6,574 nt of DNA from a virus (IMGVR_UViG_2703718769_000010:1-6574), one strand, 5' to 3'. Positions 2,928 to 6,453 are shown, counted from the first letter of the stretch. Notes: generated by a model not told the origin, from the letters alone. Numbers and translations are program-made.

Positions 2928-3461
2928 ATGAACACCAAAATCAAATACGGCCTGTCGGCTGCCGTTCTGGCGCTGATTGCCGCAGGTGCGCCTGCGCCTG
3001 AAATCCTCGACCAGTTTCTGGATGAAAAAGAAGGCAACCACACCACGGCATACCGTGATGGTGCGGGTATCTGGACCATCTGTCGCGGTGCCATTCTGGT
3101 GGATAGTAAACCTGTCGTCCCGGGCATGAAGTTGTCGAAGGAGAAATGCGACCAGGTTAACGCCATTGAACGTGATAAGGCGCTGGCATGGGTGGAGAAA
3201 AACATCAAAGTGCCACTGACGGAACCCCAGAAAGCGGGGATCGCGTCATTCTGTCCGTATAACATTGGTCCCGGTAAGTGCTTCCCGTCGACGTTTTACA
3301 GACGAATTAATGCTGGTGATCGCAGGGGAGCATGTGAGGCGATTCGCTGGTGGATTAAGGACGGTGGCAGGGACTGCCGTATTCGCTCAAATAACTGTTA
3401 CGGTCAGGTATCCCGGAGAGACCAGGAGAGCGCGCTGGCGTGCTGGGGAATCGACAGATAA
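2928..3461 (+). CDS. R: SAR-type endolysin (phage lysozyme, GH24/T4-lysozyme fold), 177 aa
   Basis: Gly/Ala-rich N-terminal signal-anchor-release segment (YGLSAAVLALIAAGAPAP) followed by the canonical catalytic spacing E-x8-D-x5-T in EGNHTTAYRDGAGIWT. SAR endolysins pair with pinholins, consistent with the S gene upstream. Confidence 0.92.
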   Translation: MNTKIKYGLSAAVLALIAAGAPAPEILDQFLDEKEGNHTTAYRDGAGIWTICRGAILVDSKPVVPGMKLSKEKCDQVNAIERDKALAWVEKNIKVPLTEPQKAGIASFCPYNIGPGKCFPSTFYRRINAGDRRGACEAIRWWIKDGGRDCRIRSNNCYGQVSRRDQESALACWGIDR

Positions 3462-3682: not shown

Positions 3683-3796
3683 ATGAAAGGCATTGAAGTG
3701 GAGACGCCAGCCAGTCTGGATTTAACAAGAGCGGCAGCTTTTGCCATTCGTATTGTGGCCATTGCTGTTCTGGTCTGGGCAATCCGTTGGTGGTGA
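3683..3796 (+). CDS. Small membrane protein candidate, 37 aa ([37 protein letters not shown])
   Basis: Not in the ORF track. ATG 3683 with GAGG at 3670-3673; stop TGA 3794-3796 sits 1 nt before the Rz ATG at 3798; single C-terminal hydrophobic helix. Confidence 0.35.
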
Positions 3797-3797
3797 T

Positions 3798-4265
3798 ATG
3801 AACCGTGTTCTGTGTGTGGTGATTATTGTCCTGCTGGTAGCCTGTGGTGTGCTTAGTCTGGGGCTGAATCATTACCGCGATAACGCCATCACCTACAAAG
3901 CGCAGCGCGATAAAAAAGTCAGTGAGCTGAAACTGGCGAATGCCACTATTACTGATATGCAGCAGCGCCAGGGTGATGTTGCTGCGCTTGATGCCAGATA
4001 CTCGAGGGAATTAGCCGATGCGAGAGCTGAAAATGAAACTCTGCGTGCTGATGTTGCCGCTGGTCGTAAGCGCCTGCGGATCAACGCCACCTGCTCCGGT
4101 ACCGTGCGTGAAGCCCCCACCACCTCCGGCGTGGATAATGCAACCGGCCCCCGACTGGCAGACACCGCTGAATGGGATTATTTCATCCTCAGAGAACGGT
4201 TGATGACAATGCAGAAGCAGCTGGAAGGGGCGCAGGAATATATCCGCACTCAGTGCCTGAAATAA
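3798..4265 (+). CDS. Rz: Rz i-spanin (inner-membrane spanin subunit), 155 aa
   Basis: [40 protein letters not shown]...[18 protein letters not shown] aligns along its whole length with lambda Rz as I recall it; N-terminal TM segment then coiled-coil periplasmic domain. The track ORF start at 3741 is an upstream extension. Confidence 0.9.
4018..4203 (+). CDS. Rz1: Rz1 o-spanin (outer-membrane lipoprotein), 61 aa, embedded in the +1 frame of Rz
   Basis: [61 protein letters not shown]: lipobox VVSAC, proline-rich mature region, close match to lambda Rz1; lies entirely inside Rz in another frame; GAGGG at 4004-4008 upstream. Confidence 0.85.
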
Positions 4266-4465
4266 GTTTTGCTGATGCGCCGTATCGTCGCCGTATTCCC
4301 GCATTAACAGAGACCGCAGCCCGACAGGGAGACTCCTCTGCGAGAGTGTGTGGGGATAATCAAAAACGATACACACCGGGGTTTACCGCGTTAACGGAGC
4401 GCGGCGTTGTCCCCTCATAGTCGCCAGTCCGGTGCGATGGTGGAAGAAACTGGAGTTTAGACAAT

Positions 4466-4499
4466 AAAAAAAACCTGCCGGGTTGTAGCAACGGCAGGT
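4466..4499 (-). terminator. Intrinsic terminator for leftward (minus-strand) transcription
   Basis: On the minus strand: stem CCTGCCG / CGGCAGG (+ 4474-4480 / 4492-4498), 11-nt loop, followed by T8 (+ strand A8 at 4466-4473). No T-run on the + strand side, so it is unidirectional. Confidence 0.6.
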
Positions 4500-4535
4500 G
4501 ATGGCACATGCAGAAGAGAATAGTATTGTTGTTAT
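4466..4535 (-). ncRNA. Candidate ~70-nt small RNA (minus strand) ending at the 4466-4499 terminator
   Basis: Putative sigma70 promoter on the minus strand: -35 TTGAAA (+ 4564-4569), 16-nt spacer, -10 GATAAT (+ 4542-4547). No credible ORF between promoter and terminator. Purely a sequence-based prediction. Confidence 0.3.
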
Positions 4536-4541
4536 TTTTTT

Positions 4542-4569
4542 ATTATCATTTTTTCAGAGTTGTTTTCAA
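4542..4569 (-). promoter_or_regulatory. Putative sigma70 promoter (TTGAAA-16-GATAAT) for the candidate small RNA
   Basis: Hexamer matches read directly from the sequence; the -35 lies inside a 16-bp motif repeated at 5201-5216. Confidence 0.3.
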
Positions 4570-5104
4570 CTCGAAATAATCGAGCCTGAATTATAATACT
4601 TACTATGCGTTATTTACTTATATTATGCTCCATGTTGCGGGACTGGGCGGTTTCCATCAGACAGTTGAGATGAATGACGAAAAGAATATTTCTTATTGTT
4701 AAGCTTTTCTGAATAATGTTTGGAGCGTATAAAATTGCCTTTGTGGCTCCTTGTGTGTGGGGGCAGGTTTTTATAGGGTGTTGTTTACTCTTATATAACA
4801 CACTGCTTTAAGTATGTTCAGCCTTCATAGGATTATTTATGCAAGTCTGGCGTTTTAATTTTATAATGTTTGCCGCCTGAACATGATTGTGAATTTCTCC
4901 TTATTTTACTGAGTGAATCTTTAAGCGAAAAATGGGTGCAACTGCTCTCGAGAGCTTTTGTCAGTGTAGCGGCCGTATTTTTTGCTGATAACGATGCAGA
5001 AGCCACCGGATGAGATTCAGATATACCTGGAAAAAGCCTGAATTGAAAAGAAACAGGTGTAATGTGCAGCACGGCTGGGGAATAAAAAATATGTGAGCAT
5101 AATC

Positions 5105-5134
5105 AAAAAAAACTGCTGTGTTGGCGCACAGCAG
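5105..5134 (-). terminator. Intrinsic terminator for leftward transcription
   Basis: On the minus strand: perfect 8-bp stem CTGCTGTG / CACAGCAG (+ 5113-5120 / 5127-5134), 6-nt loop, followed by T8 (+ strand A8 at 5105-5112). Confidence 0.65.
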
Positions 5135-5177
5135 TAAAGATTGGATAAGGGTAGAAGATTATTATTATTATTCTTTT

Positions 5178-5216
5178 GTTTTATTTTATGTGACGGATTA
5201 TTTCAATTCGGAATAA
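5178..5216 (-). promoter_or_regulatory. Second copy of the conserved motif with a weaker promoter-like arrangement (TTGAAA-17-TAAAAC), paralogous to 4542-4579
   Basis: TTTCAATTCGGAATAA (5201-5216) versus TTTCAACTCGAAATAA (4564-4579), 14/16 identical, same orientation, each about 65-70 bp from a minus-strand terminator. The -10 here lacks the conserved final T. Confidence 0.2.
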
Positions 5217-5343
5217 CTGTAGGTAATAACTTTAAGTTATCGTAAAGCCTGCAATGTTAAGGATTAGTTATATAAAGGGGCAGAGAAACGGTCCGACCCT
5301 CTGGCCTCATTCTTTAAACTTGTTATGCGATTAGCATGTTTTC

Positions 5344-5378
5344 TTGTCAGTTGTCAGTTGTCAGTTGTCAGTTGTCAG
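5344..5378. repeat. Perfect tandem heptanucleotide repeat (TTGTCAG)x5
   Basis: Five uninterrupted copies at 5344-5350, 5351-5357, 5358-5364, 5365-5371 and 5372-5378; overlaps the 3' end and stop codon of the minus-strand RHH ORF. Confidence 0.95.
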
Positions 5379-5522
5379 TCTCCGGCGACAGGCTTCAATA
5401 ACCCACGCTGAAAAGTTACCGGACCCTTTATGCTCAAGGGCGCTGTTGATCTGTTCAATCATGTGATTGGGGAAACGGATATTGCGGGTTGTTGTTCTGC
5501 GGGTTCTGTTCTTTGATGACAT
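5361..5522 (-). CDS. Small ribbon-helix-helix (CopG/Arc/omega-like) DNA-binding protein, 53 aa (MSSKNRTRRTTTRNIRFPNHMIEQINSALEHKGSGNFSAWVIEACRRRLTTDN)
   Basis: Not in the ORF track. Hand translation of the minus strand: ATG at + 5520-5522, stop TGA at + 5361-5363. Pattern of beta strand (RNIRFP), helix A (NHMIEQINSALEH), G-x-S/N loop and helix B (FSAWVIEACRRRL) is typical of RHH proteins. Weak SD (GGGG). Confidence 0.55.
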   Translation of the reverse strand: MSSKNRTRRTTTRNIRFPNHMIEQINSALEHKGSGNFSAWVIEACRRRLTTDN

Positions 5523-5710
5523 AATGTTGCCCCATATTCAGTGTTGCTGATTTGTATTATCTGAAGTTGCTTTTACGTTAATTTGATGCAGATCAATTAA
5601 TACGATACCTGCGTCATAATTGATTATTTGACGTGGTTTGATGGCGTACACGCACGTTGTGACATGTAGATGATAATTATTATTTTGTGGGTCCTTTCCG
5701 GCGATCCGAC

Positions 5711-5740
5711 AGGTTACGGGGCGGCGACCTCGCGCGTTTT
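5711..5740 (+). other. cos: Lambda-type cos site; cosN 12-nt cohesive-end sequence GGGCGGCGACCT at 5719-5730
   Basis: GCGATCCGACAGGTTACG-GGGCGGCGACCT-CGCGCGTTTTCGCTATTTATGA matches the lambda genome-end junction as I remember it (lambda begins GGGCGGCGACCTCGCGGGTTTTCGCTATTTATGAAAATTTT). The match fades about 35 nt into the cosB side. Confidence 0.85.
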
Positions 5741-5946: not shown

Positions 5947-6453
5947 ATGGCCTTTTTATTGAATAAAAGTGATATGGCCTCCTCCATCGGTATCTCTGTT
6001 CAGGCATTTGATAAATGGGGCGTTCCTCCTGTTGAGCGTCGGGGGAGGGAAGTTTTTTATGACGTTAAAACTGTACTGGAGATAGATCGCGAGCGGCGAC
6101 AACACAATCAGAGAACACCTGATGACGGGGGCGATCTGGAGGAAAGGCTGCTTCGGGCCAGAGCTGAACTGACAGAAGAACAGGTCGTAGCTCAAAAACT
6201 TAAAAATCAGGTAACCGAAGGTAAGCTCATCGATTCAGACTTCTGCGTTTTCGCCCTCAGCAAGCTGGCGATGGCATTGTCCAGTACGCTTGATTCTATT
6301 CCGTTATCCATGCAGCGACAGTTCCCGGATTTAACGCCACGTCATATTGACCATCTGAAAACCCTTATTGCGAAGGGCGCAAATCAGTGTGCGCGGGCAG
6401 AGGATAAATTACCGGATTTGCTGGATGAATATATCAGAGCAACAACTGAATAA
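5947..6453 (+). CDS. nu1: Terminase small subunit (lambda Nu1-like), 168 aa from the ATG at 5947
   Basis: C-terminal two-thirds aligns with lambda Nu1 (FCVFALSKLAMALSSTLDSIPLSMQRQFPDLTPRHIDHLK vs FCTFVLSRIAGEIASILDGLPLSVQRRFPELENRHVDFLK); GGAGAGGAG directly upstream of ATG 5947. Track start 5842 and the ATG at 5929 lack an RBS and would fall in cosB. Confidence 0.88.
   Translation: MAFLLNKSDMASSIGISVQAFDKWGVPPVERRGREVFYDVKTVLEIDRERRQHNQRTPDDGGDLEERLLRARAELTEEQVVAQKLKNQVTEGKLIDSDFCVFALSKLAMALSSTLDSIPLSMQRQFPDLTPRHIDHLKTLIAKGANQCARAEDKLPDLLDEYIRATTE

Follow-up and report, generated by a model that had tools for sequence, protein, structure and literature searches.

The locus described here raises the question whether a short array of heptad repeats at the end of a small prophage gene is the binding site of the protein encoded by that gene, or a repeat with no functional relation to it. 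A preliminary description of the DNA had proposed a ribbon-helix-helix (RHH) protein paired with a heptad operator or a partition-like unit, with a slipped-strand tract as the alternative. ORF and Pfam reading identifies the analyzed stretch of 6,574 nt, here called the window, as the late region of a lambdoid prophage. Its features are as follows.

Left edge of the window: tail end of a SASA/DUF6645 esterase gene
Right of the esterase gene and left of the lysozyme gene: DUF826, then holin
2928-3461: lysozyme
3741-4265: Rz/Rz1
4266-5343: gene-poor stretch of 1.1 kb, from Rz to ylcI, unannotated in a near-identical RefSeq prophage
5344..5378, no strand assigned: (TTGTCAG)5, equal to (CTGACAA)5 on the coding strand; a variable-number tandem repeat (VNTR) coding for L-T-T-D-N-stop and the first 17 nt of the 3' UTR
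5361..5522, minus strand: ylcI/ynfO-family gene, 53 aa, DUF3950 (ORF reading and family HMMs)
5538..5651, minus strand: small ORF, 37 aa from a GTG, matching phrog_9395 (E 9e-26, profile positions 15-51 of 51)
5689..5730, plus strand: lambda-type cos site, with cosQ GGGTCCT at 5689-5695 and the cosN 12-mer GGGCGGCGACCT at 5719-5730
5947..6453, plus strand: terminase small subunit, a Nu1 homologue (Pfam Phage_Nu1 3.4e-20; phrog_57)

The array does lie next to cos, as first described, with the Nu1 homologue following, and the distance from the ylcI ORF to the cos site is about 200 nt. By alignment the cosQ of the window is at the position homologous to the annotated cosQ of phage 434. The start of the Nu1 homologue was taken from RefSeq protein WP_033800925.1 in E. 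coli OkiPb01678 (L001), the closest complete-genome relative. Between lysozyme and Rz this relative has an additional antirepressor gene and a small ORF (L001 3973-4691), both missing from the window, and the two prophages are therefore mosaic variants. The first 190-230 nt or so of the gene-poor stretch recur in 1882 genomes, unannotated every time, and the remainder is rare. Two minus-strand ORFs, at 4610-4801 and 4833-5072, lie within it; for the latter no match was found in Pfam, NCBIfam or PHROG.

The DNA between ylcI and cos holds the small ORF at 5538-5651, which may be a gene co-transcribed with ylcI or mere conserved cos-flanking DNA. In some database entries (P0121, P0125) the PHROG 9395 ORF is fused to ylcI. 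A 13-nt inverted repeat (ATCAATTAATACG/CGTCATAATTGAT) at 5592-5624, 70-100 nt upstream of ylcI, is the same in phage 434, and it is a candidate operator or cos-flank site. A simple consensus scan between ylcI and cos found no promoter-like site. Within the codons for the basic N-terminal arm of ylcI, at 5483-5505, there are two direct copies of TGCGGGTT with 15-nt spacing.

The five perfect 7-bp repeats, with the last codons and the stop of the gene inside them, are seen by direct reading at 5344-5378 and were recovered by Tandem Repeats Finder at 5344-5379 (period 7, 5.1 copies, 100% matches, score 72). TTGTCAG occurs seven times in the window, against 0.9 expected, and none of 200 shuffles reached this count. 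On the coding strand the gene ends with ...CGC CGG AGA CTG ACA ACT GAC AAC TGA, in which the last five codons, starting at CTG, and the TGA stop are repeat sequence. The stop codon (5361-5363) falls in the third, middle unit (5358-5364) and not in the second, where it had been placed. Therefore, at least three units are needed for this stop.

The 53-aa product of the minus-strand ORF, which starts at an ATG and reads MSSKNRTRRTTTRNIRFPNHMIEQINSALEHKGSGNFSAWVIEACRRRLTTDN, is a genuine and already catalogued member of the YlcI/YnfO (DUF3950) family; the window carries a new allele of a known family. It matches Pfam PF13132 (DUF3950) with an E value of 4.5e-19 and 68.5 bits against a cutoff of 25, the NCBIfam model NF041551 'YlcI/YnfO family protein' with 37.5 bits against a cutoff of 30, and phrog_949 with an E value of 6e-32. 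The identical protein is present in RefSeq as WP_021499251.1, from near-identical E. coli prophages, and nearly all of the 660 homologues carry the name YlcI/YnfO. Homologous DNA was found in 4363 of 5426 complete E. coli genomes (about 80%), at up to 10 sites per genome, as well as in lambda, 434, HK629/630 and further lambdoid phages. Among 1.8 billion proteins this narrow family has 105 representatives at 50% identity. Its conserved core in ylcI comprises codons 1-49, up to ...EACRRRL. Compared with the lambda, 434, K-12 and O157 copies this core has 14-17 synonymous and 4-5 nonsynonymous codon differences, and because the synonymous changes far outnumber the others, the core is under purifying selection. 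With family HMM scores above the cutoffs and this selection pattern, the claim that the 53-aa ORF is a real gene holds.

The same results bear on the possibility that sequencing or assembly error produced the array, or that the ORF is a chance frame. Some sequencing chemistries are error-prone on short tandem repeats. However, the same array and flanks occur in many independent assemblies, closed chromosomes included, and a chance ORF is not compatible with highly significant family matches and purifying selection. The probability of such an origin is negligible, and it is ruled out by the independent assemblies and the pattern of codon differences.

The gene has a constant setting. In the window, L001, lambda, 434, DLP12, Qin and an O157 prophage it points leftward and is flanked by the lysis/moron region on one side and by cos or the small terminase gene on the other; a variant context has HNH and Terminase_2 instead of Nu1/cos. 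In lambda the homologue is complement(48109..48303) of NC_001416 (L093), a 64-aa protein with 88% identity, encoded 170 nt left of cosQ. The lambda reference record has no annotation for this ORF. The record's lambdap79 (47738..47944, plus strand) is a separate ORF. The copies in lambda and 434 (CPT_434_77) resemble the window gene in their orthologous position, 170-190 nt left of cosQ, in a core that is 88% identical and in an identical N-terminal arm and strand, but they are 64 aa long, end in ...TSEKRAYTSIKSDEE and have no heptad array. The homologue is followed downstream by the lambdap78/bor moron region in these phages and the window has a non-coding module instead. The K-12 proteins YlcI (DLP12) and YnfO (Qin) also share a 49-residue core that is 88-92% identical to that of the window protein and are encoded leftward, between the lysis/moron region and cos-nohD/nohA. 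They differ in length (64 aa for YlcI, 77 aa for YnfO), and have unrelated tails and no tandem repeat, whereas in the window protein the tail is replaced by the repeat-encoded T-T-D-N. In K-12, ybcW-ylcI is listed as a convergent 'excludon' from RNA-seq coverage (PMC12288877). A functional study of YlcI/YnfO was not found in the literature.

What these comparisons also show is that the family tails after RRRL are hypervariable, with total protein lengths of 48-91 aa. Past ...EACRRRL a motif x-[ST]-[ED] is loosely conserved across the family, and beyond it the tails are unrelated. As judged from the alignments, the C-terminal tail of the family is unconstrained.

The next issue is the fold. RHH proteins are obligate dimers in which an intermolecular two-stranded antiparallel sheet enters the major groove and gives sequence-specific DNA binding; a beta-strand, helix A, a short turn and helix B are contained in about 45 residues. 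The AF2 monomer model of YlcI, based on a 36-sequence alignment, has an extended coil at residues 1-18 and helices at 19-32 and 39-51, with a moderate pLDDT of 67.7. A coil followed by two helices is the expected look of an RHH monomer that misses its partner strand. Alignment of the YlcI family to the Arc family by hhalign gave P 4.4e-4 and a probability of 33% over 26 columns (YlcI 8-33 on Arc 5-30). The two are in register, with the YlcI N-I-R-F-P strand on N-L-R-W-P of Arc and helix A aligned too. The score of 20.6 compares with 9.0 +/- 2.4 for column-shuffled Arc profiles and was reached by one of 200 controls. A weak in-register match to the RHH protein CdbA (6sbw) had an E value of 1.1, and a single member of the family, out of 36, weakly matched RHH_6 (E 0.09) when Pfam was searched at E up to 10. 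Searches of the PDB by phmmer and hmmsearch gave nothing better than E ~1 for YlcI, and fold searches with the monomer model gave no informative match; of the sequence comparisons, the profile alignment with Arc alone yielded a signal of some use, and a modest one.

The closest known counterparts are Arc and Mnt of phage P22 (PF03869, MetJ/Arc superfamily). Their size equals that of YlcI (53 aa), their basic N-terminal arm, N-[IL]-R-[FW]-P strand motif and subsequent helix A align in register with YlcI, and their two helices are separated by a short turn rich in G, S and N, as in the YlcI model. In contrast, ordinary HMM searches give no significant match between them and YlcI. Arc and Mnt are encoded in the immI region and their operators are palindromes at promoters, which differs from a tandem array at the 3' end of a gene. 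In view of the above, an RHH fold for YlcI is plausible and, on profile alignment and modelling, likely; an Arc-like dimer that binds DNA would be the most likely form. Of the 'textbook RHH pattern' claimed at first, the Arc-register strand and the two predicted helices stand, but the fold is suggestive and not proven.

If YlcI is an RHH protein, the array could be its cognate site. As in the omega and MetJ systems, dimers would bind cooperatively to the heptads, resulting in autoregulation, a roadblock for late transcription or a centromere-like complex, with the number of units tuning occupancy. The omega repressor of pSM19035 binds arrays of 7-bp heptads (WATCACW) and MetJ binds tandem 8-bp met-boxes. 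By analogy, a small and putatively RHH protein near a 7-bp direct repeat array resembles these systems, and tandem 7-bp and 8-bp sites offer a precedent. The Arc-like fold that is plausible for YlcI, the perfection of the array, its direct abutment on the gene and the majority of expanded alleles would all be consistent with an operator. However, residues 8-19, which include the putative DNA-reading strand, are kept in lambda, 434, DLP12, Qin, O157 and P0058/P0011, where there is no array; the sole change in these residues among the copies examined is K9 in L076. A tandem repeat is absent at or near the gene in phage 434, DLP12 ylcI, Qin ynfO and the P0058/P0011 lineages. No tandem heptad exists anywhere in the lambda genome, which has five scattered heptamers on both strands (about six are expected) and no tandem heptamer pair even with one mismatch per unit allowed. 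The position is also against an operator: the array overlaps the stop and the 3' UTR, at the gene's 3' end and not at a promoter, and the upstream region 5523-5720 has no heptad-like motif. We know of no autoregulatory RHH operators at the 3' end of genes. Furthermore, the copy number drifts between two and eight among near-identical alleles.

Database searches point in the same direction. Among INPHARED phages the array was never found beside ylcI, and a YlcI homologue is missing from all 60 IMG/VR contigs that have three or more TTGTCAG units. The flank plus two units had no match in JGI metagenomes or GTDB species representatives. The array is present in 4 of 5426 complete E. coli genomes and the gene in 4363 of the same 5426, which means that protein and array are not co-inherited. 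One of the outcomes named beforehand as speaking against an operator, homologues without adjacent repeats and a repeat confined to a single isolate, was found in its first part; the repeat is present in one prophage sub-lineage and not in one isolate. TTGTCAG arrays of three to five units also occur with their own conserved flanks on unrelated IMG/VR contigs (L003-L062, e.g. L022, L053, L058 and L059, or L004, L011 and L016), often beside the variants TTGCCAG or TTATCAG, and about 14 IMG/VR contigs have in common the sequence ...aatagttag, (TTGTCAG)3, ttatcagcaac.

In the omega system the heptads are located in regulated promoters, in both direct and inverted orientation, and have been conserved together with the protein. 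The array studied here lies at the 3' end of its gene, is missing from every other family lineage examined and ranges from two to eight units. An omega-type heptad-operator system fails on co-inheritance and on the position of the array. The pairing of the protein with a cognate heptad operator, as first proposed, is not supported, given the missing array in other lineages despite the kept residues 8-19, the 3' location and the absence of an upstream motif, and we regard it as quite unlikely. A narrower version is that YlcI of this sub-lineage acquired an omega-like array of half-sites, which would act as a tunable roadblock or in autoregulation on the converging late transcript toward cos and terminase, with a strength set by the two to eight units; it is very doubtful. 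The proposal of a partition or segregation-like unit did not survive either. The window lacks a partition ATPase, with no ParA/ParF/ParM-type gene among its ORFs or Pfam hits, and the element is an integrated lambdoid prophage. A ParG/ParR-type cassette was rejected on both grounds, the missing NTPase gene and the integrated state.

Variation in copy number gives a different view of the array. Loci were compared that were collected via the exact protein and the closest variant (12 loci) and via DNA similarity (two more; L063 is the same strain pair as L066). With the same flanks as in the window, there are two units in L064 and L065, four in L071 and L072, six in L063 and L066, and eight in L067; five units are found in the window, L001, L068-L070 and L073-L075. 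The alleles with four, five, six and eight units have no mismatches in the 160-nt gene core. Unit number therefore evolves faster than point substitution, which is a signature of slipped-strand mispairing. The slipped-strand tract that the preliminary description offered as an alternative thus agrees with the comparison, in which relatives sharing these flanks have 2, 4, 5, 6 or 8 copies. Its suggested comparison with homologous ORFs reveals relatives that differ both in length (48-91 aa) and in the number of units (2-8). A second microsatellite, (ATT)5 at 5158-5172, lies in the same 3' module and has six units in L067 and L071.

Direct reading shows TGA in all three frames of the CTGACAA repeats. 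Any allele with at least three units therefore encodes the identical 53-aa protein (...RRRLTTDN). In the 2-unit allele (P0002), translation reads through to a TAA and gives 56 aa, ending in ...RRRLTTDKKTC. The exact 53-aa protein, requiring three or more units, was found in 515 indexed collection blocks, versus two contigs for the 2-unit allele. The predominance of expanded, all-perfect alleles could reflect selection for expansion instead of mutation pressure or shared ancestry. The locus resembles the bacterial VNTR or SSR loci used in MLVA typing, with perfect head-to-tail units and a copy number that differs among otherwise identical alleles. It differs from these in that the array overlaps the stop codon and that length changes above three units are silent. 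The two-unit string was absent from the searchable literature, and a description of the locus was not found there. The repeat is apparently an ordinary and undescribed VNTR.

Such a hypervariable tract could also be a phase-variation (contingency) locus, in which slippage would switch the C-terminus or affect mRNA stability or termination. The demonstrated variability in copy number, the difference between the tails KKTC (two units) and N (at least three units), and the variation of the second microsatellite in the same 3' region would fit such a role. In known phase switches the tract is in the 5' coding region or between promoter elements. The array is outside both, and its slippage can cause no on/off frame change. 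It follows the conserved domain, in the tail that is unconstrained family-wide, and with TGA in three frames all alleles of three or more units give the same protein. Phase variation is therefore unlikely here.

If the array is a neutral slippage repeat, its origin and its position still call for an explanation. Sister lineage P0011/P0058 encodes a 62-aa protein ending in ...LTTDRKMLSSTNMK, and its CTGACTACGGACAGAAAAATGCT can be aligned to CTGACAACTGACAAGAAAACATGCT of the 2-unit allele. From this alignment it follows that the two-unit state is homologous to ordinary coding sequence, the L-T-T-D codons. The read-through to 62 aa in the sister lineage agrees with the earlier suggestion that the repeat sets or shortens the C-terminus. 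The homology that the window shares with lambda, 434 and K-12 sets in at 5374-5389, in the array or just to its right. The sequence on the other side belongs to a separate module.

5136..5343, minus strand: lineage-specific non-coding 3' region of the ylcI transcript, travelling with the repeat-bearing allele (alignment)
5112..5135, minus strand: intrinsic-terminator-like hairpin with a 9-bp stem, 5 GC pairs and a run of 7-8 T, kept in relatives

The 3' region contains no minus-strand ORF of at least 30 aa, and the private 3' module (5100-5343) is present in only 4 of 5426 complete E. coli genomes. The hairpin at 5135-5112 is likely the end of the leftward ylcI transcript. The ylcI allele and its 3' module occur beside two packaging systems, Nu1/cos in the window and HNH with Terminase_2 in L064, and homology between L064 and the window stops at the ylcI ATG. 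Likewise, L064 and L076-L083 share the ylcI core with the window but have HNH, Terminase_2 and TerL as packaging module versus Nu1/cos. Since homology ends at the ATG and at RRRL, the core of about 150 bp appears to act as a conserved linker or cassette for the exchange of lambdoid modules.

A role of the repeat at the RNA level can be considered as well, in the 3' UTR of ylcI or in an antisense late transcript, where a C/A-rich sequence could be a sponge or a platform for an sRNA or RNA chaperone. The ylcI transcript is predicted to include the array within a non-coding 3' region of about 240 nt, with the intrinsic terminator at its end. However, this region has no Rfam match, its folding is not better than that of shuffles (z -0.94), the module is present in only four of the 5426 complete E. 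coli genomes and the number of units is not conserved. The chance that the array works in this way is slim.

Taken together, these results favour a reading in which the protein is a YlcI member, and probably an Arc-like RHH protein, and the array is a neutral slippage VNTR at a mosaic junction and not the binding partner of the protein; we consider this probable. The proposed course of events would be as follows. The codons after the core, Leu-Thr-Thr-Asp (CTG ACA ACT GAC A), already formed two 7-bp units. Slipped-strand mispairing during replication could then have expanded this proto-repeat to four to eight units in one sub-lineage. The array is placed right at the recombination junction at which the conserved ylcI cassette of about 150 bp meets a lineage-specific 3' module, consisting of non-coding DNA and a terminator. 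Repeat length leaves the conserved domain untouched, and changes in the number of units would be neutral.

The function of the protein is less palpable than the origin of the repeat. The placement of ylcI is constant, antisense to the late operon and just before the packaging genes, and this placement together with natural fusions of DUF3950 to a TerS HTH raises the suspicion of a link to packaging. P0201 (similarly P0177) is a 120-aa natural fusion of DUF3950 with the N-terminal HTH of a Terminase_2-type small terminase (L088/L089 5001-5363), and these loci carry a second DUF3950 gene at 4590-4772. The neighbours of the fusion gene include int and an AlpA-like gene, and the satellite to which it belongs is embedded in a prophage late region. 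The HTH of the fusion shares 64% identity with residues 2-54 of the helper TerS and 53% with the satellite TerS. The fusion may be a packaging-site decoy or redirector. DUF3950 is not mentioned in the Rpp paper, nor is it named in the accessible part of the TerI preprint.

A general tie of the family to DNA packaging is weakened by distant members in unrelated chromosomal or island contexts. These contexts are a fimbrial/restriction island, the neighbourhood of an integrase, and a location flanked by a TonB receptor and CopC. The diversity of contexts leads us to read YlcI as a generic small DNA-binding regulator of mobile elements. It is probably of this type and expressed leftward in the lysogen.

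As it stands the array itself matters little, with a neutral-looking repeat and a gene family that is already catalogued. It does evolve fast and could serve as a marker for telling closely related E. coli prophages apart, and it illustrates cleanly how a direct repeat in coding sequence, the LTTD codons, seeds a microsatellite at a mosaic junction. The locus also draws attention to YlcI/YnfO, a probable Arc-like DNA binder that is under purifying selection and is carried by about 80% of complete E. coli genomes, and by lambda too, where it is unannotated. Its DNA target, once found, would fill a gap in the lambda gene map.
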